Source: a virus
Virus record (IMG/VR): IMGVR_UViG_3300028827_000129
Coordinates: 96,001-160,000 of that record
Strand: one strand, 5' to 3'
Length of the DNA: 64,000 nt
Made by a program: the position numbers and the translations under genes. Positions 7,897 to 54,490 of the stretch are shown here, in pieces. Each line of letters begins with the position of its first letter. Positions within the stretch are counted from its first letter, which is position 1. The notes beneath the pieces were generated by a model. It saw nothing but the letters and a program-made list of their open reading frames with translations, did not search any database and had not been told where the DNA came from.

Positions 7897-9678
7897 ATGG
7901 CTGATTTTACAAATCTTCCAGGTTTAACAGTCACTAGGGCTGATGGCAACTTGAACCTTCCTGGTCAAGATATTCGCCCTCGTGTTCTTATTCTTGGTAC
8001 TGCTTCAAAAGGAACTTCTTTTGGACTTTATCGAGTCGACCGTTCCGATGAAGCTGAATACGTTTTTGGGTCTGGTGACCTAATTAAGGGAATGTATGAG
8101 GTGGGTGCTGCTGGAGCTAGAACAATTTATCTTATGAGATTAGGGCGGCCAGCTACATTAACTGGTTTTTTGAGTGCTAATACTTCAGCTAAGGTCACTA
8201 TTTTAAACGAAGATCAGACTTATGTCGATAATGTCACTATTAGCTGGGATGACACTAATGGATATCTTACTGTAACGCATACTAACCCAAATACTGGTGC
8301 TAGTGACGTTTTATACGATAATGGTTCTTCTGTTTATCAAACTGATAAAGTGGCAGTTGATGAAGGAGCTGGTTTTGCTGCTGGAGATAATGGTGGCTCT
8401 GATATTACAGCCACTGCGTTTCCAAGTGTTTCTGGTACATATACTCCTGTAGTTACTTCATCTAATGCTTCTAAGATGGCACTTTATGAAATGTTAGACG
8501 AGGCTTTTAAAGAATTAGAAGCTGCTGATATGGATATGATTGTACCAATGAATGTGCACTTAGATGACCCAAATATTGCCGAAGGCGCTACTGGTGTTTC
8601 TATGACAGATTATCCTGCAGCTGGTGGCTCTAATGATATTCTTGGTAAGGTTTACAAGCAAGAATATCAAGGCAAGACGTATTATTGGTGGGATACAGAT
8701 AACGATGGTTCAGCTGACATTTTCCCATCAGTTGGTTCAGCTTCTGCTACTACTGATATTGATGGCAATACCATCGCAGCTTCAGCATATGAGTCTGTTA
8801 ACTTCGCTCATCTATTAGCAAGTTATTGCTACAACTTGTCTAGAAATGAAAATGAGGCAAGGGGCTTTATTGCAGTTAAGCCACCGACTTCATATGCTAT
8901 TAAGGATTTAGTTGCATGGATCGGATCAGCTCCGACACGCGATAGCAATGGTAATGTGACGGCAAATGGGACAGGACTTCTTGGTAATAAATGGATGGTT
9001 GGCACTACTGACGTTGGAACCCCTGGCTTTTTTGCCACAGACAATGATATGCCTAGCGGGAGCCCAATCCTGGACTCGAATGATCAGAAGATTGATATTG
9101 GTCAGTATATTTCTGTTGTAGCTTCTCCTGTGACATTTTATAATTCTTCTGACAGTACTGGTCTTGGATATACTGGCACTGGTCATACTGCGTATGCAGG
9201 CCTTGCTGCAACGCTGGACAGTAAAGAAGCTCCTACATATAAAACTGTTCCTGGAGTATCGTTGCATTACGCGCTCCATAAAGACAAGTTGGATGCGTTA
9301 GTGGGTGCTGGTTATGTTACTTTTTCAACAAAGACAAATCGAGTCGCTGTCTTGGATGGCATCACCGCCGCATTGTCAACATCTGACTATAAGCGTTATT
9401 CTACTTTCGCTATTGCTTCTGATGTGATTACTGATATTCGCAGAGTATGTGAGCCGTTTATTGGTCGCGTACTTGCTTCTGTTGAGCGCGCGGCGATCAA
9501 TACCGCAGTTGAAGGCGTTCTAAATACGCGTCGTGAACAGAATTATATTTCTAACTATGAATATCAAGTTACTTCTACTGCGGCAGAATTGACTGCAGGA
9601 ATTGTTAATGTAGAGGTTATTATTGTTCCTGCTTTTGAGATTAAGAAGATTCAGCTTACAATTTCTATGAGTGTTTAA
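7897..9678 (+). CDS. Contractile tail sheath protein
   Basis: 593 aa. N-terminal NLPG...VLILGTASKG; C-terminal VLDGITAA..SDYKR...IRRVCEPFIG...VEVIIVPAFEIKKIQLTI. Confidence 0.9.
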   Translation: MADFTNLPGLTVTRADGNLNLPGQDIRPRVLILGTASKGTSFGLYRVDRSDEAEYVFGSGDLIKGMYEVGAAGARTIYLMRLGRPATLTGFLSANTSAKVTILNEDQTYVDNVTISWDDTNGYLTVTHTNPNTGASDVLYDNGSSVYQTDKVAVDEGAGFAAGDNGGSDITATAFPSVSGTYTPVVTSSNASKMALYEMLDEAFKELEAADMDMIVPMNVHLDDPNIAEGATGVSMTDYPAAGGSNDILGKVYKQEYQGKTYYWWDTDNDGSADIFPSVGSASATTDIDGNTIAASAYESVNFAHLLASYCYNLSRNENEARGFIAVKPPTSYAIKDLVAWIGSAPTRDSNGNVTANGTGLLGNKWMVGTTDVGTPGFFATDNDMPSGSPILDSNDQKIDIGQYISVVASPVTFYNSSDSTGLGYTGTGHTAYAGLAATLDSKEAPTYKTVPGVSLHYALHKDKLDALVGAGYVTFSTKTNRVAVLDGITAALSTSDYKRYSTFAIASDVITDIRRVCEPFIGRVLASVERAAINTAVEGVLNTRREQNYISNYEYQVTSTAAELTAGIVNVEVIIVPAFEIKKIQLTISMSV

Positions 9679-9733: not shown

Positions 9734-10351
9734 ATGCCTAGCAATACTGGATATGAGCGGCAAACATATAATAGCTTTTCTGGTGTAGATATTAGAGCTT
9801 CTTTTGGTGACCAGATTATTGGAGAAATCCAGGCTATTAGCTATTCTGTAACAAGAGAAAAGGCTCCTATCTATACCATGGGCGATCCAAATCCACGCTC
9901 TTTTTCTCGTGGAAAGCGCGGTATCGCCGGTTCATTAATCTTTATCATGTTTGATACGAATGCTCTCCTTGATGCATTTAAGGACAAGGATAATTATCGT
10001 TTTTATGATTGGCCTAATTCTGTTAAGCCACCTCGTACAGAGGGGCAACTACTTGGTGGAACTAGTTTAACAAGTTCGCAGCTTGCATTAATTAATAATC
10101 AGAAGGCCTCGGACGCTACTGTTGCTAAAGAATTGACAAATCCTTATTTTACTGACCAAATTCCGCCTTTTGATATTACGTTGACTGGCGAGAATGAATA
10201 CGGCGCTGTTACTTCTATGAAAATTTGGGGCGTTGAGCTATTGAATGAGGGCTCTGGAGTAAGCGTTGATGATATGGTTATTGAGCAACAATATACCTTT
10301 GTTGCAAGAAATATTTCACAGTGGACTAAAGGAACAGCTAGAGTAGCTTAA
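9734..10351 (+). CDS. Major tail tube protein
   Basis: Follows the sheath with a GGGAGG RBS. SFSGVDI...IQAISYSVTREKAPIYTMG..PRSFSRGKRGIAGSLIF...IPPFDITL. A strong hairpin follows. Confidence 0.8.
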   Translation: MPSNTGYERQTYNSFSGVDIRASFGDQIIGEIQAISYSVTREKAPIYTMGDPNPRSFSRGKRGIAGSLIFIMFDTNALLDAFKDKDNYRFYDWPNSVKPPRTEGQLLGGTSLTSSQLALINNQKASDATVAKELTNPYFTDQIPPFDITLTGENEYGAVTSMKIWGVELLNEGSGVSVDDMVIEQQYTFVARNISQWTKGTARVA

Positions 10352-10356
10352 AGAGG

Positions 10357-10380
10357 GTGGCCCCGCGAAAGCGGGGCCAT
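10357..10380 (+). other. GC-rich GAAA-tetraloop hairpin after tail tube gene, no U tract
   Basis: GTGGCCCCGC-GAAA-GCGGGGCCAT. Confidence 0.75.
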
Positions 10381-10388
10381 AAAATAGT

Positions 10389-11135
10389 ATGTCAGGTAAA
10401 TTACCTTATTCTAACAATACTGAACCTTTATTATCTCAATTTGATCCCTATCGCGAACAATCTTCTGGTATCACAGAAGATAAGCACAAGCTTGATAAAA
10501 TAGACGATGTTATTATTTATGACAAGGCTTCATATTCAGGAGTCGACATTAAATGTTTGGTCATGGGACCTCCAGGTGCAGCTGAAGGAGCAGAAGAGGG
10601 ATGGATAAAAGTACTGGGGGAAGTACAGACTGTTTCTTATCAAATCCATAGAGAGAAGGTCCCAGTTAGAACATTAGGCAGAAGTGCGCCAAAAACGTAT
10701 ACGAAAGGTACTAAGACCGTTGCAGGGTCAATGATATTCACGCTATTTGATCGTCATGTTTTTAATTCAATGTTATTAGGATCTAAGCTTTATGGTTCTG
10801 CTAAGGATACAGCAAATCCTTATGTTACTGTAGACCAATTACCGAGATTTGATTTTGTATTATATTTTGCCAATGAACGTGGTAGTGAGTCGTTGCTTGC
10901 TATCTTAGATTTAGAAATTGTCAATGAGGGTGGTGTATTTAGTGTGAATGACATGATATCTGAAGCAACTATGAATTGGGTTGCGCAGCATATTATGCCA
11001 TTAAGGTCTTTAGATGAATATAAACGAGCAATTAATAGTAAGCAAGGGGCGGTTCAGAAGGGGAAGAGATTTTCAGACATAGTTAACCAATTAGGCTATA
11101 AAGAAGTTTTAGCCAGCAATAATCCATTTATTTAA
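10389..11135 (+). CDS. Tail tube paralog (tube initiator/baseplate-proximal tube protein)
   Basis: SYSGVDI, VQTVSYQIHREKVPVRTLG, VAGSMIF and LPRFDF align with 9734-10351. Confidence 0.7.
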   Translation: MSGKLPYSNNTEPLLSQFDPYREQSSGITEDKHKLDKIDDVIIYDKASYSGVDIKCLVMGPPGAAEGAEEGWIKVLGEVQTVSYQIHREKVPVRTLGRSAPKTYTKGTKTVAGSMIFTLFDRHVFNSMLLGSKLYGSAKDTANPYVTVDQLPRFDFVLYFANERGSESLLAILDLEIVNEGGVFSVNDMISEATMNWVAQHIMPLRSLDEYKRAINSKQGAVQKGKRFSDIVNQLGYKEVLASNNPFI

Positions 11136-11142
11136 TCAAATT

Positions 11143-11886
11143 ATGACAGACGTAGTTAAGAGAGATATACCTGCAGCTAGATGGGATAACGACTTTTTTA
11201 CTGGTGCCCAAGTAAATGTGTATTTTGGAGACGTTTGGGTAGACGACATTGTATCTCTAAGCTTTAGTTTAGAACAAACAAAGAGACCTATTTATGGTTA
11301 TGCTTCTCAATATTATGATGCTGTTGCTAAGGGTAAAATTTCAGTAAGAGGCAATTTTACAATTAATTTTAAAGAAAATGGATATTTATATGTTATACTA
11401 GATTATCTGAAGAATAATTTTTATACTAAAGAAGAAAAAGGTGGTTCTTCAGAAACTTTGCAAAAAGCATTTTTTATGGAAAAGGCAGAGTCTGGTCGAG
11501 GTGATGCAAAGGTAATTTCTAGGAATATAGAAAATATTCTTGAGAAAAAATCTTCAGGAGCCGAAGGATTTGATAGATTAACATATTTTTTAAATGCCGA
11601 TATGTCTAAATTTGAAGATTTAGCTGAAGCATATGAAGATAGTGTATGGTCAGATGAAGGGGTTTCTGTAAAGACTATTGGAGGCATCAATAAAAAATAC
11701 AAAAGACCAGATGAATTTGGCCCTTTTGATATTATTATTACTTACGGCGATATTAATGCCAGCAAGGAAGATCATACAGTAAAGAGGATTACAGGTGTTG
11801 AGTTATTGGGGGCGTCTCAAATAGTAAATTCGGACAGTGAGCCGATATATGAAGCATACCAATTTATAGCTCGCAATATTCTTTAG
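11143..11886 (+). CDS. Second tail tube paralog
   Basis: FFTGAQV, LSFSLEQTKRPIYGY, VRGNFTI, FGPFDIIITY and YQFIARN. Confidence 0.68.
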   Translation: MTDVVKRDIPAARWDNDFFTGAQVNVYFGDVWVDDIVSLSFSLEQTKRPIYGYASQYYDAVAKGKISVRGNFTINFKENGYLYVILDYLKNNFYTKEEKGGSSETLQKAFFMEKAESGRGDAKVISRNIENILEKKSSGAEGFDRLTYFLNADMSKFEDLAEAYEDSVWSDEGVSVKTIGGINKKYKRPDEFGPFDIIITYGDINASKEDHTVKRITGVELLGASQIVNSDSEPIYEAYQFIARNIL

Positions 11887-11895
11887 GAGGTTTTT

Positions 11896-12318
11896 ATGTC
11901 TAAAGCAGAAAAAGATTTAGATGTCCAGGCTGAAGAGCAGGTAGAAGGTAGTAAAGAGGCAGTAGATCCTATTATGGCTGCATTTGAGAAGATGGAGAAT
12001 GGTCCATCTAAAGAGCAAATAGAGCTATGGAAAAATGAACATAATGGGGAGGTTTATATCTCCGCTTTTGATGAAGATGAAATTTATGTTTGGAGACCAT
12101 TGTACCGTCTTGAGTATAAGAATATTATCAAGATGGTTAAGGACCCAATTATGGCAGACGAGAAGATGCTAGAGAAGTGTTTACTTTTTCCTAGAGTCAC
12201 TCCAGAGTTTTTATCTATGACTAAAGCAGGTACTATTGAAACTATGGCTGCACAAATTAGGGAAGTTTCTAATTTTGTTAATCCAGAAACTGCCATTGGG
12301 CTTGTACGTAAGCTTTAA
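11896..12318 (+). CDS. Putative tail assembly chaperone
   Basis: Acidic 140-aa protein (IELWKNEHNGEVY...YVWRPLYRLEYK) between the tube and tape-measure region. Confidence 0.6.
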   Translation: MSKAEKDLDVQAEEQVEGSKEAVDPIMAAFEKMENGPSKEQIELWKNEHNGEVYISAFDEDEIYVWRPLYRLEYKNIIKMVKDPIMADEKMLEKCLLFPRVTPEFLSMTKAGTIETMAAQIREVSNFVNPETAIGLVRKL

Positions 12319-12328
12319 AATGTAAAGG

Positions 12329-12838
12329 ATGCGTTTATTTGAAGAAAGGTATGGTATAGAATTCCAGGACGGGGAGTTTATAGTTTTTAAACTCCTCTCC
12401 TGGGGTCAATATAGGCGCTACAGAGAAATTTATTTTTCTAATCCTGATGCTCTTCCTGAAATAGAGGAAGAGATTTTTGATTTATGCGTATATAACGCTC
12501 ATTTATATGATAAAAACTATCTAAAAGCTGGGACTGTCTCTACTGTCGCATATGCAATACTTAAATTATCAGGCCCAAATAGTTTAAAAGACGTAGAAGA
12601 ATCTTTAACAATAGCTAGAAATAATATTAGTGATGTTGGGTATCAATTGGCTGGATTTGTTTGCAAGGCATTTCCTGCATATAAATTAAGCGATATTGAC
12701 GACTTAACGTGGCATGAATTTATGAATCTCGTTGCATTATCGGAGCAGATATTAGGTAAGGACATAGATTTTAATCAAAACCAATCTATGCAGAACCAAC
12801 ATCAATACAACTATGTAAATAAGAAATTTCATAGGTAG
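12329..12838 (+). CDS. Second putative tail assembly chaperone
   Basis: Similar to the upstream gene (IVFKLLSWGQYR vs YVWRPLYRLEYK; KAGTVST vs KAGTIET). Confidence 0.55.
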   Translation: MRLFEERYGIEFQDGEFIVFKLLSWGQYRRYREIYFSNPDALPEIEEEIFDLCVYNAHLYDKNYLKAGTVSTVAYAILKLSGPNSLKDVEESLTIARNNISDVGYQLAGFVCKAFPAYKLSDIDDLTWHEFMNLVALSEQILGKDIDFNQNQSMQNQHQYNYVNKKFHR

Positions 12839-12849
12839 GATTTTTTGTT

Positions 12850-15800
12850 ATGCCTCAACCTACTCCTTTAATCCCTGTTGATCCTGAAGAAAGAAAAAAG
12901 AAAGGGATGCCGTGGGGGGCTGCTACTACAGCAGCCCTTATTGCTGGGCATGATCTAATAGAGATTCCTCTTATTAAGAGGTGGTTTTCTGCTAGATCTG
13001 GAATAAGGAGCTCAAGATTAACTTATCTTAATTTAGGTCTTTTTATAGCCCCCAATCAGCGTCCTGCTGGTATACAAAGTTTTAGAGATTTAACTGGCCG
13101 TTCAGAAGCTCTCGTTAAAGATGTTATTTATGAGGGCATAAGGCGACTAGAAGAGACTCCTACTAGAATTTTCCGCACTTTTGAATTATCTTCTTTATTT
13201 TCGACCATTGTATTTAGGGACACTAGCGGTGCAGTTGCTAGGTTTTCTGGAGAAGAAGCCTTAAAGTTACGTAAATATGTTACTCGTTTAGCCGGCAGAG
13301 ATATTGGAGTAGAAGAAATAGCTGGCGGCATGAGAGTTATTAAAGGCTCTTTATACGGAGTCAATGTCAATGGAGAAATAGGCAAAGAGCCACTCGTCAA
13401 ATTTGTAACATTCATGCAGCGCAAATGGACTCCGTATCATGAGAAAATTAAAGGAGCCAGGCAAGAAAGACTTTCTCATTACAGCAAATTAGCCAAAGAA
13501 TACGAGGCTATGATTGCTGGAGAGGACTTTGGCAGAATAGCTGCACACAGGGGCGAAAGCGACTTTTTACTTTTGGTAGGTGGACGTAATCGCTCTGAAA
13601 GTTCTATGCGCACAATCAATGCCTTTTTGAGAGTGCAAAGTAAGAAATTTTTTCATTTGCTTGACGATCCTTTTGAAGCTTTACAAGAGATTACAGGCGT
13701 TGTTAGCAAAAGGTTAGGTCGCGGTTCTCGTCTTTGGGAAAAAATAGGCATTAGGGGTAAATTAGGTCTAGCAGGTGATTATTCTGGGTCTCTAGCTGAA
13801 ATGTGGGCCAGATGGCTTTTGCCTGGCAAAGGTAAAATGGGATGGAGGCTTGGTGCAATTGGAAGCTTTGTAGCGCTGCCTTTTATTTATAAAATAGCAG
13901 AAGCGCATTTAAAGGTCCCTAACACCATTCTGGAGGAAGGCCCGACAGCAGCATTGGCCACCTTATATGCTAAGGGGGATATTTTAAGAGGTCAAGTTAG
14001 TGAAGCTTTAGGAATACAAAGCTTCATTGAAAAACAAGAAGAATTAGCGCCGGGATCTACAAAGGGCATAATGTCTTACTTAGCATTCCCTGCCTCGTTC
14101 GCTATGACGGGCGCTGTGGCCTCCGGAGCCCTTACCATGACCCATCGGTTAAGTAAGGGTATGTTAGGGGCTAGAGAGGAGGCTCAGGCCCTCAGAAGGC
14201 TTTCTGGGCCGCTAGGTAAGCTTATAAAGAAGAGTTTGCCGAGAGCTCATCGTTGGGCATATTACGGAGCTGCTATTGGAGCTATTGCTGCTGCTCCATT
14301 TGCTTTGGGTGCTGCCTTAGCGACAGTATTTGGACGCAAGCCAGTGCAGCAGCGAAAAGAAGAATATGCAGGAATTAGAGAAATACCAATCCGTAAAGGC
14401 AGATGGTGGGAAGCTGGAAGAACTCCTTATGAAGGCGGGCGCATTCTTACATATGCACCGCACTTTGTCGTAAGGGCCAGAACTCACGCTAAAGAGAAGG
14501 CATTGTATGGAGAGTACTGGGATAAACCGATTACTCGACTATTTAAATCTATAGTTGATCCTTATTGGCTTGAGCGTATGCATAATGAAGATAGACCATA
14601 TCCAATATGGGGGCCATCTGATCCAGGGTTAGGATTTTTGGGTACAATATGGCAGCATACATTAGGGGCTCTATTCAAGCCGCCAGTTTATGTAAATCAG
14701 GACAAGTATATTACTGAATCAGGAGAATATATCGATAGAGACACTAATTTAAAATATGAACCATCCTATCGTTTAGGTGGAGAATTACCAGATATGCCTG
14801 AGCCTAAGACTGGCTGGAAATATGCACTCTCAGAGATAAAGAGAAGGCTAGCTGATACATTTGGATTGACTGGTTTTGCCTTAGAGTCTGTAGAAGAGAA
14901 AATGACTGGCAGCACAGACCTATTTGAAGATAAAAGGTTTTTAGCTTCTTCTGCAGAACTAGATTCAACAGCTGCAGATTTCTGGGGATTGCACCTTGGC
15001 GGAGGTCTTACAACAACTGAAGCATTACGTAGGATCTATTTTAAAGAACGTCCTAATATAGAAGTTGTTAATCCTGCTGAAAACAATATGCCATCATGGC
15101 TGCCAGGTGACGATTATATGGTTAATTTCCATACTGGAAATCCTTATACAAAAATCCCTATGGGTGAATATGTTTTGCCAGGACCAGCATATGAGGAACT
15201 TCACCCAGAGTTAAAAGGTGTCCCTTATGAAGACTACCCGCTAATCCATAAATTGAATATTCTTAAGAATGTAGCTGTTTATAGTAAAGAATTTACTGAA
15301 TATGCAAAGACGGCTAAACGTATTATAGCTGAAGGGAAAGAGGACCAGGCATATATAGAGCAGCTTAATAGTATTTTGGAGCAAGCTGCTCAAATGAAAA
15401 AACTTGAAGTGCAAGAGATCCCTGATGATAATATTATATCTTCTTATTGGAGTCTTTTAAATGAATCTGCTGCTAACCCTACAGAATATTTAACTCCTAT
15501 TGCCCCTATTCATAAATTTGTCCATACAATGGGGCCTATAGATACATATAGAGATACGCAGATTCTTTCAAGTGAAGTTACTTTGTGGAATAAGCCTTAT
15601 GAGCATTTTATAAAGCCTGCTATTAGACATTTGTTTGGTGTAGCATATGATGATTATGTTCCTAAAGAAGTAAGAGAAAGGCAGAATTTATCTGATTATT
15701 TTGAAGCTTTAAAATATATCAAATATAAAAATCTTCTTAACATTGCTAAAGAACGTGGGCTGCCAAGTTACTTATATGAAAGAAGAGTAAAATCTAATTT

Positions 15801-16395
15801 ATTTGGCATTAGCTCTGCATCAAGAGAAGATGATTTATATTATGCATTACCAAGGATTGATAAAAAATTCTTTGAATTTTTTATCAATGCGGAAGGGGAA
15901 GAACGCGAGGAGATCAGTAATTTAGTTTCTCCCATGATAGCTAGGGCCTATAATATATTTTGGGCAAAGCATGATGGAAAATCTTCGTATATTCCGGCAT
16001 TTACAGCATCTGACGTAGAAGAATATTTGGAAGATAAACCGATTCCTGGACCTAATTGGATAGGCTGGGACAGTGATGTAGATTTAGAAGATATAAAACT
16101 AAAGCTTCTAGAAAGAAATTTTGAAGATTTTACGGAGTATGACATTTGGGGGGACCAGATTAGAGCATCTAAAAGGAAGCCTTATTTAGAAAGGGCTTTA
16201 GATGAGTTTAATGTCAAGAGGTCGAAAGCAGAAGTAAAGAAGCAAATAGAACAAATGTTATATGGCAATGGTTTAGAAAATGTAGAAGTTTTAGTCGATG
16301 ATTATACTGGGGAAAATGTTATATTTTTTGAAGGGAAGGATTCTCAAGAAAAGTACCTGAGATCGCAGATGAGAGATATGGGATTTTTTAGTTAA
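12850..16395 (+). CDS. Tape-measure-like / ejected membrane protein
   Basis: 1181 aa after the tail chaperones, with several Gly/Ala-rich hydrophobic segments (LGAIGSFVALPFIY; YLAFPASFAMTGAVASGAL; YGAAIGAIAAAPFALGAALATVF). Confidence 0.6.
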   Translation: MPQPTPLIPVDPEERKKKGMPWGAATTAALIAGHDLIEIPLIKRWFSARSGIRSSRLTYLNLGLFIAPNQRPAGIQSFRDLTGRSEALVKDVIYEGIRRLEETPTRIFRTFELSSLFSTIVFRDTSGAVARFSGEEALKLRKYVTRLAGRDIGVEEIAGGMRVIKGSLYGVNVNGEIGKEPLVKFVTFMQRKWTPYHEKIKGARQERLSHYSKLAKEYEAMIAGEDFGRIAAHRGESDFLLLVGGRNRSESSMRTINAFLRVQSKKFFHLLDDPFEALQEITGVVSKRLGRGSRLWEKIGIRGKLGLAGDYSGSLAEMWARWLLPGKGKMGWRLGAIGSFVALPFIYKIAEAHLKVPNTILEEGPTAALATLYAKGDILRGQVSEALGIQSFIEKQEELAPGSTKGIMSYLAFPASFAMTGAVASGALTMTHRLSKGMLGAREEAQALRRLSGPLGKLIKKSLPRAHRWAYYGAAIGAIAAAPFALGAALATVFGRKPVQQRKEEYAGIREIPIRKGRWWEAGRTPYEGGRILTYAPHFVVRARTHAKEKALYGEYWDKPITRLFKSIVDPYWLERMHNEDRPYPIWGPSDPGLGFLGTIWQHTLGALFKPPVYVNQDKYITESGEYIDRDTNLKYEPSYRLGGELPDMPEPKTGWKYALSEIKRRLADTFGLTGFALESVEEKMTGSTDLFEDKRFLASSAELDSTAADFWGLHLGGGLTTTEALRRIYFKERPNIEVVNPAENNMPSWLPGDDYMVNFHTGNPYTKIPMGEYVLPGPAYEELHPELKGVPYEDYPLIHKLNILKNVAVYSKEFTEYAKTAKRIIAEGKEDQAYIEQLNSILEQAAQMKKLEVQEIPDDNIISSYWSLLNESAANPTEYLTPIAPIHKFVHTMGPIDTYRDTQILSSEVTLWNKPYEHFIKPAIRHLFGVAYDDYVPKEVRERQNLSDYFEALKYIKYKNLLNIAKERGLPSYLYERRVKSNLFGISSASREDDLYYALPRIDKKFFEFFINAEGEEREEISNLVSPMIARAYNIFWAKHDGKSSYIPAFTASDVEEYLEDKPIPGPNWIGWDSDVDLEDIKLKLLERNFEDFTEYDIWGDQIRASKRKPYLERALDEFNVKRSKAEVKKQIEQMLYGNGLENVEVLVDDYTGENVIFFEGKDSQEKYLRSQMRDMGFFS

Positions 16396-16397
16396 TC

Positions 16398-19300
16398 ATG
16401 ACTGAAAATAATGACTCTGGGCTAAGAAGTAGAATTCGTAATACTGCTGTTTTAGGTGCTGCTGTTGGCGGCAGTTGGCTTAGCTTGCAGTATCTTGCCA
16501 CAAGAGGGGTACATCTTGGCAGAGCTTCAGTCGCTAGCAAAAGTGCAAAGAAAATTAAGACAGCTGTAGAAAGCTTTGATGCTAAAAAGGCCTCTGAAGA
16601 GATCTTAGCGCTTTTAGAGCACCCAGATTTGTTTGAGTATCAAAAAACTGCTGCTCATGCAGCAGCTATCAGCATGGCCAAAAAACGATCTGGTGTTGTG
16701 CGAGAGTTTTCTACATTATCTGACGCTATAGCTTATGGCGAAACTAATGTTTCATTCCAGAAAAACTTGTTAAGTGCTTCAAGAGAATTAGAGAAGACGT
16801 TATTTGAAGAAGTAAGACATAGGGAAAAGTATTTAAAATCTCCTTTACGTTTCGCTACTACAGATTATATTTCTAAGCCGTTAGTAAAGCAATCTTCTGG
16901 ATTTTATCTTTTTGCCGAAAGGCGCGGATCTTGGTTTAACGATATAACTAAAGCTATTTCAGATATACCAGGGCTTAAGAATAGACAGGATATTAGCGCT
17001 TTAGCGCAAAGTATGGCGGATGTTGCAGCTTCTATAGCTGGCACGAGTAATATTTCTGTAAAGTTTTATGCTGCTGATATGCTGCACGGTGGTCAGATAC
17101 AGAGAGAAATTATTGGTGTCGGGTTTCTCAGAAATAATACCAATGAAGCATATTTTCCTATTTTAACTGCTAGCAATAAATATGTTGTTGGTAGAAACCA
17201 AACAACTATATATGCTCCCAAGCGTGTAGTAGTAGACCCAGATATGTTTGTAGAAACTCTTGGGGCTAAAGGACATGTAGGTTTAGACGTGTACCACATG
17301 TCTAAGTTTGTCGAACAATATAAGACTAATACCAATATAAACAAGCTCGCGCGAAGCACTCAATTAGATGTAATGAGGCATGCTGTTTATTCTGATGATT
17401 ATGGTAGATTTAAGCCTTCTTTTACAAGAAATAGTGTACGTGACGTTATAAGGTCGTCAGGATTTGTTTTCCCGACAATTTCACAGACTGCCTTTATTCA
17501 AAAAGCTGAGGAGTTAATAGAGAGGGGGGTTGACATTGGCGGGATTCCTGGTCAGCATATTGCTAAAAATACGTTATTCTTAAATTTGAATAAATATTAT
17601 ATGTTTGGTGATACTGGCGATCGTGATAAGTTCATGCGAATGATAACGCGCGATGTATCTTTTGACCCAGGTCGAGCTCAGAGGCTAATGCAGCATGGAG
17701 TAGATATGAGACCTATTGTCATGTCTGCTGATTTAGCTAATTTGATGAAGCAAGAAAATGATTTTTTGCCTCGGTTTACTAGACTTGGGGTTTCTGAAGA
17801 TAGATTAAGGGAACTTTTAAAGAGACATGGGCTTGAAGACTTTATGCCCACTGAAGATGAGTTTATTGCTCCGCAAAGTATTAGAGGTCGCTATATTGCC
17901 GAATCTGCTGGTACATACACTCTTTCTTCTGATACGCCGATTAGAGAAGAGCTTATTAAGGTAGCGAAGGGAGAGCAGAGCGGCGATATCTTCTTGCATG
18001 AAGGTGCTTTTCTTGGGGTTTCTCCGGAGGGTCGGGCTGTCACAACTAAAACAGCTGGAGAAAAAATAGAGAGCGTTGTCATGAATGACGACGGGACTGT
18101 TAAGATAGTGACGCGTAGAAAAAATGTTGGTACAGATATAAAGTTTTATGGGATGAATACCAAGCTTACTGGAGGCCACCAGGGCTTTATATCTAACAAG
18201 AAGTTTCGCGCTTTAGTTAAAGATATTTTAAGGGAAGATGTCGGCATAGAAAGTGGCCATGTTATATCTAGATTAGCCAGAAACATAGAGGGTATTTCTA
18301 TAGGTGCCCCTAAATCATCGTATGGTCATGCCCAAGTTGAAATGCGTCTTGCTAATATACTGAGGATAATGGAGACGTCTGAATTGAGCAAAGAACAGTT
18401 TGAGCATGTTAGCAGACAGTTATATGCCCTTGGGATTAAGGCTTCAAGTGACAACTTAGTTTCTAAGTATGTTGTTGAGAATAGTAGGCTTAATACAGAC
18501 CAGATAGCGCAACGCCTAAATGCGATTGAATCGTCCTTAGAAGAATATACAGGCATTAAAATGGCTAAATTAAGTAATGTTCTTTTCCATGATATTGTCA
18601 CACGCGGCGAACATCTTGTTTTGCAGGGCGCTGGTAAGCGTGCTACTCTTAGTAGGCAGACTCAGGCTGTCTTAGACACTCTAGCAAGAGACGAAGAGCT
18701 GGGGCAATATTATGCTGCTATTAAAGAAGATGTAGCATCTAGGATGAACCTTAAACCTGAGAATTTGCGTGAGGTAGCAAAATCTTATTTAGCTGTGGAT
18801 CGCATAGATGCTACTCCTGTGACGAGCGCTTATGAAAAGTATAAAAAAATGTTTGGTGGCGATATTGATGAATTTTTAGACTATATTTATGATCAGGATA
18901 TAGATGTAAGGCGCGAAAATTTGGCGGCGTTAGGTATTAAGGATGAAATGATTGGCCTTGGCACTACGCTAAGGACAGAAACAGGTGTATCATTATCGGC
19001 CCTTAGAATTAGTACAGATCCATCAGGGTATACTGGAATGATGTCGATAAGTAGCGGCCGTCCGTTTCATAAGTCTCTCGATAAGGCTGGTAGATCTTTG
19101 TTGAGGGCTGTACTTGTCGAAGGTGTTGAGGGCGAAATGCCATTTGCTGTAGAAGAGGCATTAACTAATTATATTGATGAGCTAACGAATGTAGCTGGCA
19201 AGAATTTGTTAAAAAGTGCTTATTCAGGGAAAGTGTTTGGGTCTGCGTTACTGAAGGCAGCTGGCTATAGAGGAGGCCGTATAGAAGGGTTTAATCAGGA

Positions 19301-20789
19301 TTATGCGATTATTGTACATAGAGATATTTACCGTAAAATGCTTGAAGATATGGGGCTGCAAAGGGGTGAAATAGCGAGGAGGCTTAAGCAAGCTTCTAAG
19401 ACTGGGGATTACGCGTTGTTAACAAAAGACCCTACATGGGGAAGGATGAAAACTCCAGTTGTTAGAGTTTATACAAATAAGGCTGCAGGCCTTAAAAAGA
19501 TGTCGAAGCATAATGTATTGGTCAGCGAACGCATATTAGGGTTAATTGAATCAGAAGTGCCAGTAGGGACACATATTGATACAGACGGTGACATTTTAAA
19601 TATTTTGCCGTTAAAAACTGCAACATCAAGAAATGCTGCAAAGGTATTACTTGGTCAAAAAGGTCAAGGTAAGCTGTTTGAAATGATGGATGAATTCTAT
19701 AAAAACATTCATGTTTCTACATTTGATGCTAAAAAGAGCGTGCAGTATTTTGATCCTGAAACTGGCCTGGTAAGGAAGGAAATTTTAAAAGGGCAGTTTA
19801 GAAAAGCATTAATGTCAAAGTCTGAAGTTGGTAAGATTACAAACAAAATTGAGCTATTAAGGGCGTCATTATTAAATTCTCCTTCTGTAACGCCGAGACA
19901 ACTTAGTTTGCTTGATGCTTGGTCAACCGAAATGATTGAGCGCGGTATTCTTGCTAAGCATATTTCACCTGAAGAGATTAGTAAGTACAATATTTTAAAC
20001 GACCTAGAGTCTGCTGTTGAATCTTATAGAGACCCAGATCAGGCATTTAAGCATTTAGTTTCTGCTACTCGCAAGGTGTACAATATCGCAGATATGCCAG
20101 AAGAGACAATTAGAAGTGCTTCTGTCATTAAAGATGCGAAAGGCAAATTGTTTAATATGGCTGCCTATAGAGAGCAAGAGGTAATGCTCAGAGAGATGGC
20201 TAAGCAGATGGTTGCGTTTAAGAGTTCCGCTGAATACAGAGCATTAGAAGAAGTGCATAGCTTAGCTGGCAGTAATTTTAAGAGTAAGCAAAGATTTTTT
20301 GAGAGAGTTGCTGATCTATCTGATACATCTTCTGTTGGCGCTAGGGCAAGAGCTTTTGTTGGCATTCCTGAAGAAGGTGTTGGGGCGGCAAAGAAAGTCA
20401 CGAAAGCCTTAGAAAAAGAAGCTGGCCTTTTTCAAGGTATAGCTATTTCTACTTTGCGCAAGTATAAGCGGCCTATAGGATTGGCTGTTGGTGTTTTGGC
20501 TGGTTTAGGAATGATGATGTCTAAACCAAGCGATTTAGATATAGATACTTTACAAACAGAACACGCTGAGCCTATGCCTGCTAAAGTTCCTATGGGTGGG
20601 CATAATCTACCTGTTGGACAACGTAACGGATATAAGATACGCATTCGTGCCAAAGGGGATGGGCATGATTTTGGTCATTTAGGTAGAAAAGCTGCAGATA
20701 TTGCAGGTGGTGGGAGAGTTCATGTCTCCGTAAGTGATACAAGAAGAAAACTTTATAAAGAAGATTTAGAGAAGCTTATTTATGCATAA
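16398..20789 (+). CDS. Putative single-chain two-barrel RNA polymerase (virion RNAP) at the tape-measure locus
   Basis: Ordered motifs TEDEFI (aa ~486), DIKFYGMNTK (K582/K589), SGKVFGS (~944), LLTKDPT (K1010), HIDTDGDILN (D1061/1063/1065) and VGKITN (~1145), with hydrophobic N- and C-terminal segments. Confidence 0.65.
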   Translation: MTENNDSGLRSRIRNTAVLGAAVGGSWLSLQYLATRGVHLGRASVASKSAKKIKTAVESFDAKKASEEILALLEHPDLFEYQKTAAHAAAISMAKKRSGVVREFSTLSDAIAYGETNVSFQKNLLSASRELEKTLFEEVRHREKYLKSPLRFATTDYISKPLVKQSSGFYLFAERRGSWFNDITKAISDIPGLKNRQDISALAQSMADVAASIAGTSNISVKFYAADMLHGGQIQREIIGVGFLRNNTNEAYFPILTASNKYVVGRNQTTIYAPKRVVVDPDMFVETLGAKGHVGLDVYHMSKFVEQYKTNTNINKLARSTQLDVMRHAVYSDDYGRFKPSFTRNSVRDVIRSSGFVFPTISQTAFIQKAEELIERGVDIGGIPGQHIAKNTLFLNLNKYYMFGDTGDRDKFMRMITRDVSFDPGRAQRLMQHGVDMRPIVMSADLANLMKQENDFLPRFTRLGVSEDRLRELLKRHGLEDFMPTEDEFIAPQSIRGRYIAESAGTYTLSSDTPIREELIKVAKGEQSGDIFLHEGAFLGVSPEGRAVTTKTAGEKIESVVMNDDGTVKIVTRRKNVGTDIKFYGMNTKLTGGHQGFISNKKFRALVKDILREDVGIESGHVISRLARNIEGISIGAPKSSYGHAQVEMRLANILRIMETSELSKEQFEHVSRQLYALGIKASSDNLVSKYVVENSRLNTDQIAQRLNAIESSLEEYTGIKMAKLSNVLFHDIVTRGEHLVLQGAGKRATLSRQTQAVLDTLARDEELGQYYAAIKEDVASRMNLKPENLREVAKSYLAVDRIDATPVTSAYEKYKKMFGGDIDEFLDYIYDQDIDVRRENLAALGIKDEMIGLGTTLRTETGVSLSALRISTDPSGYTGMMSISSGRPFHKSLDKAGRSLLRAVLVEGVEGEMPFAVEEALTNYIDELTNVAGKNLLKSAYSGKVFGSALLKAAGYRGGRIEGFNQDYAIIVHRDIYRKMLEDMGLQRGEIARRLKQASKTGDYALLTKDPTWGRMKTPVVRVYTNKAAGLKKMSKHNVLVSERILGLIESEVPVGTHIDTDGDILNILPLKTATSRNAAKVLLGQKGQGKLFEMMDEFYKNIHVSTFDAKKSVQYFDPETGLVRKEILKGQFRKALMSKSEVGKITNKIELLRASLLNSPSVTPRQLSLLDAWSTEMIERGILAKHISPEEISKYNILNDLESAVESYRDPDQAFKHLVSATRKVYNIADMPEETIRSASVIKDAKGKLFNMAAYREQEVMLREMAKQMVAFKSSAEYRALEEVHSLAGSNFKSKQRFFERVADLSDTSSVGARARAFVGIPEEGVGAAKKVTKALEKEAGLFQGIAISTLRKYKRPIGLAVGVLAGLGMMMSKPSDLDIDTLQTEHAEPMPAKVPMGGHNLPVGQRNGYKIRIRAKGDGHDFGHLGRKAADIAGGGRVHVSVSDTRRKLYKEDLEKLIYA

Positions 20790-23700
20790 TAACTACTTCA
20801 AAATAAACGATATTGAATTAGCAGTTTCACCGTCCAATATTCGTGTAGATAAAAGTACAAAGAATATAAAAATTCCCATTGTACGCGAGTCAGAAGCGGT
20901 AAAGAACCGTAGTGGACACGGTGACATAAACGTGTCTTTTGATGTAATATTTTCATACAACGAAAATATTACATCATCATCTAAACATAATGACATCAAG
21001 AATGACTTATTGAAGATAGTAGCTCAGCTACAGTTAACTCCATTTTTCATAGTAGAAAATGAATTTGTTACTAAATCTATAAAGCCAGAGTACCAAGATT
21101 CAGAGCCTTTAATGTTGGTGCTCAATAATATGTCTATCTCTACTTCTCCTGAGTTACACAATTCCATCATTGCCCAATTTAATTGTTTTTATGTAGAGCA
21201 TTCTGCATTTACTCCATTTTTGTTTTTCAAAAGAACGGAGACATCTGGGGCGGATGAGAAGCCAGTAAAAATCAGCGAAAGTGGGGCATGGAAGGCATTT
21301 TACAAACCGTATTGGGATCGATTGAGAAGTATGGCTCCGTCATCCTTTAATGGGAGTTGTCATTTTCTTTTTCCTGTATTAATAAACGAGGATGGTAATG
21401 TAACTTTTGGCACAACAGGGTTTGATATCGATGGGACACAGGTCCCGGTGTCTGTTACTGTGAATTTCTATAATCGCCTAGCAGTAATGCCTTTTATAGG
21501 TCTTGAATATCCAGCTTATCAGTACATGGGTGGATCAGATAGAGAGGTTTTTATAACAATTGAAGATGTTAGTGGGCGAGACCAAAAGTTTAAAGACTTG
21601 CTTAAGTTGTTACAGCATTTTAATCAACTTGCTATAAATGATAGACAAACAGCTGGCAATGATGCAATAGTTGTAAAAAATGATATTCTAAATATGCTTG
21701 GAATAGAAGAGGTTATTTGTGAAAGCGTTTCAGTAGAGACTCATCCGTCTGAACCAGAGACTTCAATCATTAATTTACATTTATTGTCTCATAACATAGA
21801 TAAAGTAAAAGAAGCAGAAAGTCTCGAACGCGAAGAATATAATACTGTTGAGTCATTAGTTGAAGAGATTATAGATAACTTCATTAATTATACAGACGCA
21901 TCTATTGTAAGGCGTAAAGTGACAGATTCTGTATATGATGATACGTTTTTGTTAAATTATGATTTTGAAAGAAGTGTTTTTGTGATGACATCTGGCATAC
22001 CAGATTTGCCAGCTCCATTAGACTCATTATTTGAAGATTTTAAGAAGACTTTATCAAACATATATTCAGGATCTATAGTTTATAAATTGCGTGATGATTT
22101 TTATGATTTTATGAATCATGTTGACGACGCTGTTTTTGGGATTAAGACTAAATTAGGCGTTGGTCCTTCTATTTATAAAAATAAAGATAATGAAGCAAAT
22201 AGTGCGGCAAGACGTGTTCTTACTGATTTTGCCTTTAAGGCATTTCATGTTTTGAAGGATTACCCAGATGCTTATCCTGAAATGAAAATTATAGCAGAGA
22301 AAGTCGACTATGAACTGAAGCATGGGATGAGAAAAAATGTCCAGCCGTGCTATCCTGATATAGTCCCAGATGATATCAATAAAAACCCAGACGATTACTT
22401 TTTTTACAGTGGTTCGCTGAAAGAAATAATTAAAGAAGCGAAATTGTTTGGTGCAGATGCTATTTCTAAAACATTTGATGCAGTTGAAGACTTTACTGAC
22501 AAGAATGGCATCCACTGGGATTTTTCTGGTCTTTCTAGTGGTGACAAGGCGTCGATTAATAATATTAAGAGTTCATTAAGCGGCGATGGCGTAACAATTA
22601 CAGATGGTAGGCCGGCTGAATTTATTTCTAAGCATAAGAATCAGGGTAGATTTACAAAAACTTCCATTGTCGATAAGGAGTTATTCCTTGACGGCTATAA
22701 TGACACATCTATGTCATTAAAAGCTGAAATGAATGCTACCCATCGATTCGATAAGGCTTCATTTAAATCACAGTTTGAATTAATTGATTTCCCGGATGAT
22801 TTTATGACCTTTAGAAAGGCATACCCAACATTTCGTTTATATTTTATTGAAGAATATTCTCAAAAAACAAGAATGCGTAAATTAGACGATAAGTTTGTCT
22901 ATAGAGCAATAAAAGAAATTAGAGTTATAAGATCTAGGAAAAACCCGATAGATACTGCAATTATCCAATTGAGTAATGTAGATGGATCATTTTATATTAG
23001 AAATTTTAAGCGCAATGACCTAAAGGGTACATATGCAAAAGAGCTTGTCCGTGGGAAATATGACTATAGAGGGCATGACGTTTATTCATCCGACAATAAA
23101 AAAGACAATTTATTAGATGAAAAGCCTATCTTCCAAGAGGGTTCTGTAATCCAGATACGATTGGGATATGATAACAACCCAGATAAATTGACTACGGTTT
23201 TAAATGGCAAAATAACAGAAATAGACGGTGACGGGTTTGGTATTATTACGATTGTTGTTCAAAGTTTTGGGTATGAACTCTTGGAAGATACTTGGGGGAC
23301 TCCTGGCGATGGCATGAGTCTTGGCGGATGGTTTAATAATACAACTCCTTCTATTATCACGGAGATTTTGAGCAGTCCTTCTATTACACACTTTGGCAGG
23401 TGGACTTATGGATATACTAAAGAAGTAGATCCTGATGAAATTGAGCGTAAAGCAAGGCATTCTATGTTGCCGAACTTTATCGTAAGGCATATTTACAGAT
23501 GGATCGATACGCCCAAGGATGACAATATCTTCGCTCCTTATGAAAGCTTTTATCGTAAGTATATAGAAGATTTTGCTATATTGCGTGGTTGGAAAGATTA
23601 TTATTCATATGGATATACAACTTGGGATATATTGAAAGACATGGAGCGTAGGTGGCCTGGGTATGTATGTCAGCCAGTACCTTATGAAAACAGAATGACA

Positions 23701-24912
23701 TTGTTTTTCGGTATCCCTAGCATGGGGTATTGGTTTAGGGATGACAGCTATATAGATAAAATGGAACGAGAGTCTACGTTAGCATCTTTACAAAGGAAAT
23801 ACAAGTCTATCAGGTCATCAATTGAGGCTGCTGACTCTTTTAGTAAGAAAGGTATTCATGGGGTTTCGGAAGAGGCGTATAAAATCGCCGATAGAGTTAT
23901 TAGAAAAGTAGGGCGGTGGAAATCTTTCCGAGATTATCATATGTTAACTTCTGAACATGATATTTTATCGAATGGAGTTAAGACTTCTTCAAAAAATACA
24001 TACAACGGCGTAAGAATTATATATGATAATGATTTTTGGAGAGAGGAAGAATTTGATATAAACAATTTACAATCAGAATTTACCCTTAAGCCAAATAAGC
24101 ATATTCCTGATGAGGAGATAACATATCAAGACTTTTTTGAGGCTAATGTTATTGGAGATGATGGGGCAAGAGTTTGTGCAATTTCAAGGTTATTAGATGG
24201 TCTAAGAGACTTGTATACAGGAGAAATAGCTTTAATAGGCAACCCAAGAATTAAACCTTACGACATATGTTTTATTTACGATTCATATAACGACATAGCT
24301 GGTCCAGTCGAAGTCGAGCAGGTTGTTCATATATTTAATCAAGAGGATGGGTTTATTACATTATTAACTCCTGATTTATGCGCGTATGCAACAGAATATG
24401 CATCTAGTACTTTTATAAGCGGTGTTGGTACAACGTTTATGAAAGTCTGGGATAAATTAGCGAATGCTACCGACAAACTAATAGACAAGTATAAAACTGC
24501 GATAGTTAATGACGATACTTTTCTCAAGACTGGGATGATTGGTGTAGGTGCCTTTACTGGAGATAGGGTGATACAAACTTCGTTAGCTGCTATGTTTACT
24601 CCATCCTCGATGGCTATCTTGAGTATAGGCAGTTTATTTATGCTTAATGTGCTTTATGATTGGGATGTTGGTCGTTATCCTATTCAGGTATTTCCTCTGT
24701 TATTTAAAGATAAACCTTATATTTTAGGTCTCCCAGATTGGTCAGAAACTAGCTTGTGGCAAGATATTTCTGGTGAATGGAAGTTCCTTACCTCTGGCGT
24801 TAAGAAGTTTTGGGAATCTGAGATTAAAGAGCCTTCTAAACAATTTGGTGCGTTTAATATTTTAAGTGAAAGGTTCAAGAGATTTCTTGGCGAGATGTTT
24901 CTTGGTAACTAG
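20782..24912 (+). CDS. Large baseplate hub protein (gpD/gp27-like C-terminal region)
   Basis: IQIRLGYDNNPDKLTTVLNGKITEI and GEIALIGNPRIKPYDICFIYD...VEQVVHIF...GFITLLTP, located after the tape-measure region. Confidence 0.65.
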   Translation: MHNNYFKINDIELAVSPSNIRVDKSTKNIKIPIVRESEAVKNRSGHGDINVSFDVIFSYNENITSSSKHNDIKNDLLKIVAQLQLTPFFIVENEFVTKSIKPEYQDSEPLMLVLNNMSISTSPELHNSIIAQFNCFYVEHSAFTPFLFFKRTETSGADEKPVKISESGAWKAFYKPYWDRLRSMAPSSFNGSCHFLFPVLINEDGNVTFGTTGFDIDGTQVPVSVTVNFYNRLAVMPFIGLEYPAYQYMGGSDREVFITIEDVSGRDQKFKDLLKLLQHFNQLAINDRQTAGNDAIVVKNDILNMLGIEEVICESVSVETHPSEPETSIINLHLLSHNIDKVKEAESLEREEYNTVESLVEEIIDNFINYTDASIVRRKVTDSVYDDTFLLNYDFERSVFVMTSGIPDLPAPLDSLFEDFKKTLSNIYSGSIVYKLRDDFYDFMNHVDDAVFGIKTKLGVGPSIYKNKDNEANSAARRVLTDFAFKAFHVLKDYPDAYPEMKIIAEKVDYELKHGMRKNVQPCYPDIVPDDINKNPDDYFFYSGSLKEIIKEAKLFGADAISKTFDAVEDFTDKNGIHWDFSGLSSGDKASINNIKSSLSGDGVTITDGRPAEFISKHKNQGRFTKTSIVDKELFLDGYNDTSMSLKAEMNATHRFDKASFKSQFELIDFPDDFMTFRKAYPTFRLYFIEEYSQKTRMRKLDDKFVYRAIKEIRVIRSRKNPIDTAIIQLSNVDGSFYIRNFKRNDLKGTYAKELVRGKYDYRGHDVYSSDNKKDNLLDEKPIFQEGSVIQIRLGYDNNPDKLTTVLNGKITEIDGDGFGIITIVVQSFGYELLEDTWGTPGDGMSLGGWFNNTTPSIITEILSSPSITHFGRWTYGYTKEVDPDEIERKARHSMLPNFIVRHIYRWIDTPKDDNIFAPYESFYRKYIEDFAILRGWKDYYSYGYTTWDILKDMERRWPGYVCQPVPYENRMTLFFGIPSMGYWFRDDSYIDKMERESTLASLQRKYKSIRSSIEAADSFSKKGIHGVSEEAYKIADRVIRKVGRWKSFRDYHMLTSEHDILSNGVKTSSKNTYNGVRIIYDNDFWREEEFDINNLQSEFTLKPNKHIPDEEITYQDFFEANVIGDDGARVCAISRLLDGLRDLYTGEIALIGNPRIKPYDICFIYDSYNDIAGPVEVEQVVHIFNQEDGFITLLTPDLCAYATEYASSTFISGVGTTFMKVWDKLANATDKLIDKYKTAIVNDDTFLKTGMIGVGAFTGDRVIQTSLAAMFTPSSMAILSIGSLFMLNVLYDWDVGRYPIQVFPLLFKDKPYILGLPDWSETSLWQDISGEWKFLTSGVKKFWESEIKEPSKQFGAFNILSERFKRFLGEMFLGN

Positions 24913-54431: not shown

Positions 54432-54454
54432 TATTGTTTTTGCCTTGTATTTTA

Positions 54455-54463
54455 TGGTATAAT
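54455..54463 (+). promoter_or_regulatory. Extended -10 promoter (TGGTATAAT) upstream of the primase-helicase
   Basis: TG-n-TATAAT, with TTGTTT 18 nt upstream of the hexamer. Confidence 0.5.
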
Positions 54464-54490
54464 ATTATCAAAAATAAAACGAGGTGTGAT

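Follow-up and report, generated by a model that had tools for sequence, protein, structure and literature searches.

A 64,000-nucleotide (nt) stretch of the IMG/VR virus record IMGVR_UViG_3300028827_000129, hereafter the window, carries two adjoining giant tail genes, termed here gene 1 and gene 2, of which the second very probably encodes a protein with the fold of a two-barrel RNA polymerase (RNAP), as its conserved motifs and the fold matches of its predicted structure indicate. We further propose, with somewhat better than even confidence, that the gene 2 product is an RNAP that is assembled into the tail and injected, and that gene 1 supplies a membrane-active partner made by translational coupling. 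The record is an 87-kb fragment of an uncultured jumbo phage with an estimated completeness of 45%, and the gene 2 protein is present also on a 170-kb contig. To judge from its sequence, the source is a 0305phi8-36-like jumbo myophage with a contractile tail. Gene 2 lies in the slot that holds gp146, annotated as a “hypothetical tape measure”, in Bacillus phage 0305phi8-36, and ME3_36, annotated as a “hypothetical protein”, in Acinetobacter phage ME3.

The preliminary description of this DNA had called gene 2 a putative RNAP, and this identity is made very probable by motifs kept across about 30 positional homologues and by fold matches to RNAP large subunits. The C-terminal parts of 27 proteins, with 11–19% identity to gene 2, were aligned with MAFFT (alignment A2), and the only columns that are invariant in 27 of 27 sequences belong to a metal-binding DxDxD loop, DTDGD in gene 2. 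Among the positional homologues, which range from 1388 to 3222 amino acids (aa), this loop lies 376–447 aa from the C-terminus and typically reads [GA]DFDGD, GDTDGD, GDYDGD, or GDFDDD; we estimate from composition alone that roughly 1–2% of proteins would carry a DxDxD in such a 70-aa window by chance. An R/K-x-P loop is found 40–50 aa upstream of the aspartate triad (R/K in 23 and P in 24 of the 27 sequences) and matches the catalytic-barrel R-x-P loop termed the “Pro-gate”. The corresponding elements of QDE-1 are R962-x-P964, with the aspartates ~43 aa later (PMC9508822). About 120 aa downstream of the aspartates, A2 displays the consensus E-x-x-[LI]-K-[SA]-x-H (E in 23/27, L/I in 27/27, K in 22/27), which in the model falls within a predicted helix, at a predicted local distance difference test score (pLDDT) below 50. 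We take this motif to resemble the bridge helix “DTALKTA” of beta'. On the upstream side, a G-x-G-K/N-x-G-[ST] loop at aa 744–750 keeps G744 in 24 of 27 sequences and a K892/K896/R899 cluster of gene 2 is conserved in 14–16 of them.

We modelled A2 with AlphaFold2 without templates (1103 residues). The predicted polymerase core, which contains the catalytic double-psi beta-barrel, is confident, with pLDDT values of 70–93. Foldseek comparison of this core with the PDB yielded 386 matches at E<=1e-3, and those listed, phage AR9 nvRNAP among them, are RNAP beta'/Rpb1-type chains, with E about 5e-6 and a probability of 1.00. An independent comparison by VIA-align against 48,161 representative chains likewise ranked large subunits of archaeal, Pol I, Pol II, vaccinia, and mycobacterial enzymes at the top, with barrel-only proteins scoring lower over ~90 aligned aa. 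The catalytic barrel itself (model residues 588–712) aligns to isolated double-psi beta-barrel domains at root-mean-square deviations of 2.2–2.6, and the fold alignment to QDE-1 begins at chain residue 713, within the first barrel of that enzyme.

Tail proteins often carry wall hydrolases, and gene 2 could in principle be a tape-measure or tail-lumen protein whose barrel is no polymerase, being instead a structural relic or a double-psi-barrel wall hydrolase of the MltA/3D type. We regard this as very improbable. The likeness to RNAP large subunits spans 250–350 residues, well beyond the ~90-aa barrel, and takes the top ranks in both fold searches; the contiguous DxDxD with an R-x-P loop 40–50 aa upstream is the RNAP arrangement; and the three aspartates are invariant despite the low overall identity. 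Moreover, no Pfam family, the 3D domain included, was matched at E<=0.1. Hydrolases of the MltA, 3D, or RlpA type were not among the 50 fold matches listed, an absence that does not exclude such a family.

Several observations count against an RNAP. Gene 2 has no significant sequence similarity to any known member of this class. tblastn of gene 2 against 50,697 phage records gave no match, and a word-indexed search of 5.8 billion proteins with the gene 2 protein and with profile A2 returned only gene 2 itself, as did phmmer with aa 200–1399 against 1.84 billion representative proteins at E<=1e-3. PDB sequence searches with gene 2 and profile A2 yielded no RNAP, a feature search of the ESM Atlas gave a top score of 0.87 and no usable lead, and BLASTP against ME3_36 and gp146 produced insignificant alignments only, at the C-termini. 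Alignment of A2 by hhalign to residues 327–1124 of the P23-45 virion polymerase gp96 covers 25 columns at the aspartate loop only (probability 2.4%), and alignment to the YonO-like polymerase gp99 of 0305phi8-36 is likewise confined to this loop (probability 0.4%). Such loop-only alignments fit the published statement that RNAP families have little in common beyond the aspartate loop (PMC10770324). The model as a whole is poor, with a mean pLDDT of 50 and only ~345 of 1103 residues confident. In the R-x-P loop, gene 2 itself deviates from the R of most members by a K, and its bridge-helix-like motif is without the consensus K. Neither the second barrel nor its basic residues are securely assigned, K747 being kept in only 9 of 27 sequences and the upstream model confidence being low.

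Apart from the polymerase region, the gene 2 family is composed of two further parts, giving a variable N-terminal extension of about 300–2100 aa, the conserved polymerase region of ~1000 aa, and a C-terminal module of tape-measure type. The latter connects gene 2 to 0305phi8-36: the A2 profile matches gp146 solely at residues 2404–2526 (E 1.5e-7), and it does not match the more distant slot proteins that lack DxDxD. Both gp145 and gp146 of 0305phi8-36 were identified in virions by mass spectrometry, and from homology to gp145 and to the gp146 C-terminal module, respectively, the gene 1 and gene 2 proteins are probably present in virions as well.

The preliminary description had noted hydrophobic segments with basic flanks at both ends of gene 2. 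This feature holds family-wide, with both segments found in 26 of 26 members and the basic residues on the polymerase side. Hydrophobic segments were scored throughout by Kyte-Doolittle hydropathy in a 19-aa window, and no further one was found by this measure in the 1463-aa protein. The N-terminal segment is weak, its equivalents lie within the first 50 aa, and its flanks carry a mean charge of -0.92 before and +1.08 after, a pattern seen in 20/26 members. The C-terminal segment, 97–138 aa from the C-terminus, shows the opposite order, with means of +2.3 before and -1.3 after in 15-residue flanks and a higher charge before than after in 24/26; in gene 2 it reads RKYKR, then PIGLAVGVLAGLGMMMS, then KPSDLDID. 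Taken as transmembrane helices, the two segments would each orient the polymerase body towards the cytoplasm.

A profile scan of IMG/VR revealed 161 relatives of gene 1, and the loci of 80 of these were retrieved. All 80 retain the three-gene order, with the gene 1 homologue immediately upstream of the slot gene; the order sheath, tube, chaperone-position genes, gene 1, gene 2, hub is common to ME3 and 0305phi8-36. In the window, the gene 1 stop codon TAA (16393–16395) is followed by “TC” and then by the gene 2 ATG at 16398, leaving a 2-nt gap, and the ATG of the hub gene at 20782 creates an 8-nt overlap with the end of gene 2. Thus, the two giant genes 2 nt apart, placed by the preliminary description between tail chaperones and hub, are confirmed as open reading frames (ORFs), and all four peptide strings quoted in it are found in the translations. 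The synteny comparison that it had called for, of fused against split versions, shows the pair split in all 33 nearer loci, with gaps of -17 to +16 nt in 32 of them and a fusion in none. Judged by this spacing, genes 1 and 2 are a conserved, tightly coupled pair, with apparent translational coupling on both sides of gene 2 in 33 relatives. In one locus (L031, 9929–18350) the gene 1 homologue apparently consists of two ORFs of 658 and 563 aa, followed by the polymerase gene (1548 aa; A2 profile E 2e-87). The gene 2 family is found on at least tens of viral contigs and was exposed only by synteny-guided collection of positional homologues.

The slot is not filled by a polymerase everywhere. In distant relatives (L035–L082, with a gene 1 of ~2200 aa), as in 0305phi8-36 with gp146, it holds a giant gene without DxDxD and without similarity to the polymerase region. 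The content of the slot therefore differs between the two clades, only one of which has a polymerase there.

Gene 1 is, by sequence similarity, a member of the “virion structural protein” family of 0305phi8-36 gp145 and ME3_35, with tblastn matches to ME3_35 (E 5e-61, 81% coverage, 25.7% identity) and to gp145 (E 2e-12). Several Gly/Ala-rich hydrophobic helices had been described in it, and four such segments are indeed recovered, all within the N-terminal ~500 aa (aa 24–42, 334–352, 406–429, and 476–494). The last of these is the strongest (score 1.98) and has an equivalent ~105 aa ahead of a DRPYPIWG anchor in most near relatives, where its flanks average +3.05 before and -1.79 after; gene 1 itself is atypical at this position, with +2/+2. 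Together with the termini of the gene 2 family, this recurrence marks the hydrophobic segments as conserved and not accidental. The remaining C-terminal ~650 aa are the best-conserved part of the family (alignment A3, 52 sequences), and their predicted fold is compact, mostly helical, and confident (pLDDT 79.3, predicted template modelling score 0.73). Fold searches with this domain matched uncharacterized viral proteins only and no solved structure, and neither Pfam nor PDB profile searches with both gene 1 halves gave anything significant; a match to CusA in the latter (E 0.22) was put down to hydrophobic composition. The gene 1 N-terminal half bears no nuclease signature at the sequence level. 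Gene 1 would most likely be co-ejected as the membrane-active partner of gene 2, and could act as a pore, as an anchor, or on the wall.

In the mechanism that we favor, the C-terminal module would build the gene 2 protein into the tail lumen or hub, and contraction of the sheath would then expel it through the tube ahead of the DNA, with the gene 1 protein leaving as well. The terminal hydrophobic helices may enter the cytoplasmic membrane such that the basic-flanked polymerase body comes to lie in the cytoplasm, where the enzyme would transcribe those genes that arrive first, in line with the model put forward for P23-45 gp96 (PMC10770324). The channel formed jointly by both proteins, the membrane-tethered polymerase, and the pulling of DNA that the preliminary description suggested are all hypothetical. 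In their strongest form, both proteins would build a conduit across the envelope: the cytoplasmic membrane would be crossed by gene 1 and by both termini of gene 2, and a helix at either end would fix the polymerase at the inner mouth, so that transcription expresses the first genes and helps to draw in the ~170-kb genome. We consider this full version improbable; if true, it would represent transcription-coupled genome entry by a virion-borne, cell-type polymerase.

Several features also speak against a membrane-bound virion enzyme. Hydropathy scores of the segments in the two proteins are modest (1.2–2.0), and Gly/Ala-rich segments could equally pack in the tail lumen. The charge rule itself stems from proteins that enter the membrane from the cytoplasmic side. 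The virion location rests on homology, and gp146 itself lacks DxDxD. An alternative deserves weight, although we hold it to be distinctly less than an even bet: the polymerase is real and injected, yet forms neither a membrane tether nor a two-protein channel, the terminal segments serving as packing or assembly elements in the tail tube or hub, as do tape-measure termini, and the enzyme being free in the cytoplasm, perhaps cleaved. The C-terminal helix and small domain are common to gp146, which has no polymerase motif, and hence a role in tail assembly independent of transcription is possible for this module. The modest hydropathy and the glycine-rich nature of the segments point the same way, as does the compact, soluble-type fold of the main gene 1 domain. 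Against a free enzyme stand the flank charge asymmetry, which is family-wide at both ends of gene 2, and the membrane segments described in tape measure proteins, including P23-45 gp96.

Searches with PF05183, PF00623, PF00940, gp99, and A2 paralogues were negative in the 87-kb record and in five complete relatives that carry a tail-slot polymerase (G001–G005, 160–235 kb). These five relatives show no second RNAP of any type searched for; no YonO-like, beta'-type, or T7-type polymerase is detectable in them with these models, which divergent enzymes could escape. The tail-slot polymerase may thus be the only polymerase of these relatives. As gp99 is also absent from five motif-less relatives, an either/or pattern between the slot polymerase and a YonO-like enzyme is not demonstrable. 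These data bear on a further explanation, namely that gene 2 is a non-virion polymerase merely encoded in the late tail operon, neither packaged nor ejected. 0305phi8-36 does possess a separate, apparently non-virion polymerase in gp99, and for the polymerase-bearing members presence in the virion is deduced by homology. However, the invariable placement of gene 2 after the chaperone-position genes and before the hub, coupled on both sides in 33 relatives, and the C-terminal module common to gp146, a virion protein verified by mass spectrometry, argue against this, and it is not obvious what a polymerase made late would do, given that no second one was found in five complete relatives. We therefore judge this explanation highly improbable and retain the injected, tail-assembled RNAP as the preferred reading.

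The preliminary description had stated that no classical long repetitive tape measure gene is present. Within the 87-kb record, about 45% of the genome, this holds: there is no match to the tape-measure families PF10145, PF20155, and PF06791 and no tandem repeat was seen, gene 1 and gene 2 match nothing in Pfam and PHROG and contain no tandem repeats that we could find, and none of the other large ORFs of the window matches a tape-measure family. Its description of gene 1 as tape-measure-like, on the other hand, is not supported, because more than half of the protein is a compact globular domain without an extended helical or repetitive build. The “tape measure” slot of gp146 and the gp146 C-terminal module belong to gene 2 and not to gene 1. 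For gp146, Hardies et al. assigned the tape-measure role mainly from tail length and found conservation limited to its last 60 aa (PMC2147016).

The window is a structural-gene region in which the tail genes run on the + strand, with baseplate wedge genes downstream of the hub; features are listed in Table 1. Upstream of gene 1, three consecutive tube paralogues (205, 248, and 247 aa) all match phrog_9206, which PHROGs labels “major head protein”. This label looks mistaken, as synteny with gp140/141 suggests tube proteins. The two small genes that follow are putative chaperones by position; the first matches phrog_29362, of unknown function, and no mutual similarity was found between them. Near the C-terminus of the hub protein, aa 1270–1291 (window 24589–24654) form a hydrophobic segment with a Kyte-Doolittle score of 1.55, so that membrane-like helices occur in three giant tail proteins in a row. 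The replication block downstream of the structural genes opens with a fused primase/DnaB-like helicase gene (835 aa; phrog_6444, phrog_19) at 54434–56941.

Table 1 Predicted features around the gene 1–gene 2 pair, in window positions.
Feature	Position	Strand	Basis
Tail sheath	7897-9678	+	phrog_16991, E 2e-65
Tube and two tube paralogues	9734-11886	+	synteny with 0305phi8-36 gp140/141
Two small genes in tail-chaperone position	11896-12318, 12329-12838	+	position as ME3_33/34 and 0305phi8-36 gp143/144
Gene 1 (P0001, 1181 aa)	12850-16395	+	ORF; gp145/ME3_35 family
Gene 1 region with four Gly/Ala-rich hydrophobic segments	12919-14331	+	Kyte-Doolittle peaks 1.31-1.98
Gene 1 C-terminal domain, aa ~535-1181	14452-16392	+	mostly helical, Pro/Trp-rich, compact
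Gene 2 (P0002, 1463 aa)	16398-20789	+	ORF; single-chain two-barrel RNAP candidate, tape-measure slot
N-terminal Gly/Ala-rich hydrophobic segment of gene 2, aa 14-34	16437-16499	+	Kyte-Doolittle 1.21
Polymerase core with catalytic double-psi beta-barrel, aa ~745-1090	18630-19667	+	AlphaFold2 model
R/K-x-P loop, KDP, aa 1010-1012	19425-19433	+	A2
Metal-binding DxDxD loop, DTDGD, aa 1061-1065	19578-19592	+	A2
Bridge-helix-like motif, ERGILAKH, aa 1181-1188	19938-19961	+	A2
C-terminal Gly-zipper-like hydrophobic helix of gene 2, aa 1359-1375	20472-20522	+	hydropathy
Small C-terminal domain of gene 2, aa 1376-1463	20523-20786	+	part of module common to gp146
Baseplate hub (P0003, 1376 aa)	20782-24912	+	phrog_20474 E 1.8e-66, phrog_8809; synteny with ME3_37 and gp147 “baseplate hub”

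A polymerase borne by a tape measure protein has been published, and experimentally shown, for only one phage, the Thermus siphovirus P23-45, whose gp96 is a tape-measure-fused, two-barrel virion RNAP with membrane segments (Chaban et al. 2024, PMC10770324; PDB 8H2M/8H2N). Gene 2 resembles gp96 in that its polymerase is also encoded in the tape-measure slot, but it comes from a contractile-tailed phage and differs in architecture. The gp96 polymerase stands at the N-terminus, ahead of ~3900 aa of tape measure with a metallopeptidase, whereas that of gene 2 makes up the C-terminal two thirds and has only ~120 aa of tape-measure-type tail behind it, most of the membrane-rich part being encoded apart, in gene 1. 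P23-45 also has a paralogous non-virion RNAP, unlike the five complete relatives of the gene 2 phage, in which none was found. Sequence kinship with gp96 or gp64 was not detected (A2 profile against gp96 residues 1–1300, E 3.1), and gene 2 would accordingly work like gp96 while belonging to a separate family.

0305phi8-36 offers the closest match in gene arrangement, with the same two genes between chaperonins and hub, gene 1 corresponding to gp145 and the C-terminal ~120 aa of gene 2 to gp146. It differs in that gp146 (2537 aa) has neither DxDxD nor detectable similarity to the gene 2 polymerase region, and in that gp99 is encoded separately, beside the terminal repeat; no gp99 homologue was found in relatives with a tail-slot polymerase. 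Single-chain two-barrel RNAPs of the QDE-1/RDR and YonO types differ from gene 2 in genomic context and with respect to the terminal hydrophobic helices, and gene 2 gives no signal with the Pfam RdRP family (PF05183). Phage phi14:2, which is crAss-like, carries a virion RNAP inside a giant protein, gp66, which presumably leaves a podovirus-type particle by ejection and is not encoded in a tape-measure slot. In the papers searched, we found no description of a tape-measure-slot polymerase in 0305phi8-36-like or ME3-like myophages, nor of ME3_36 or gp146 as a polymerase, and neither ME3 nor 0305phi8-36 is named in the supplements of PMC10770324. New elements of the present locus include the hydrophobic helices at both polymerase ends with consistent charge asymmetry across the family, the connection between gp146 and the C-terminal module of gene 2 together with the always-split, coupled pair, and a confident predicted fold for a gene 1 domain without solved relative, by which the gene 1 family adds a widespread virion domain unmatched among solved structures.

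If gene 2 is an injected RNAP, this would explain how transcription starts in these phages, change the annotation of a whole class of giant “tape measure” or “hypothetical” tail genes, and provide a tractable system for the passage of a ~1300-aa enzyme through a tail tube and its possible tethering at the entry pore. Taken together, the best reading of the locus is that it extends the “polymerase fused to tape measure” case of P23-45 to contractile jumbo phages, and that with its ~30 positional homologues it would constitute a second, sequence-unrelated solution in a large contractile jumbo-phage lineage that includes the cultured Acinetobacter phage ME3.

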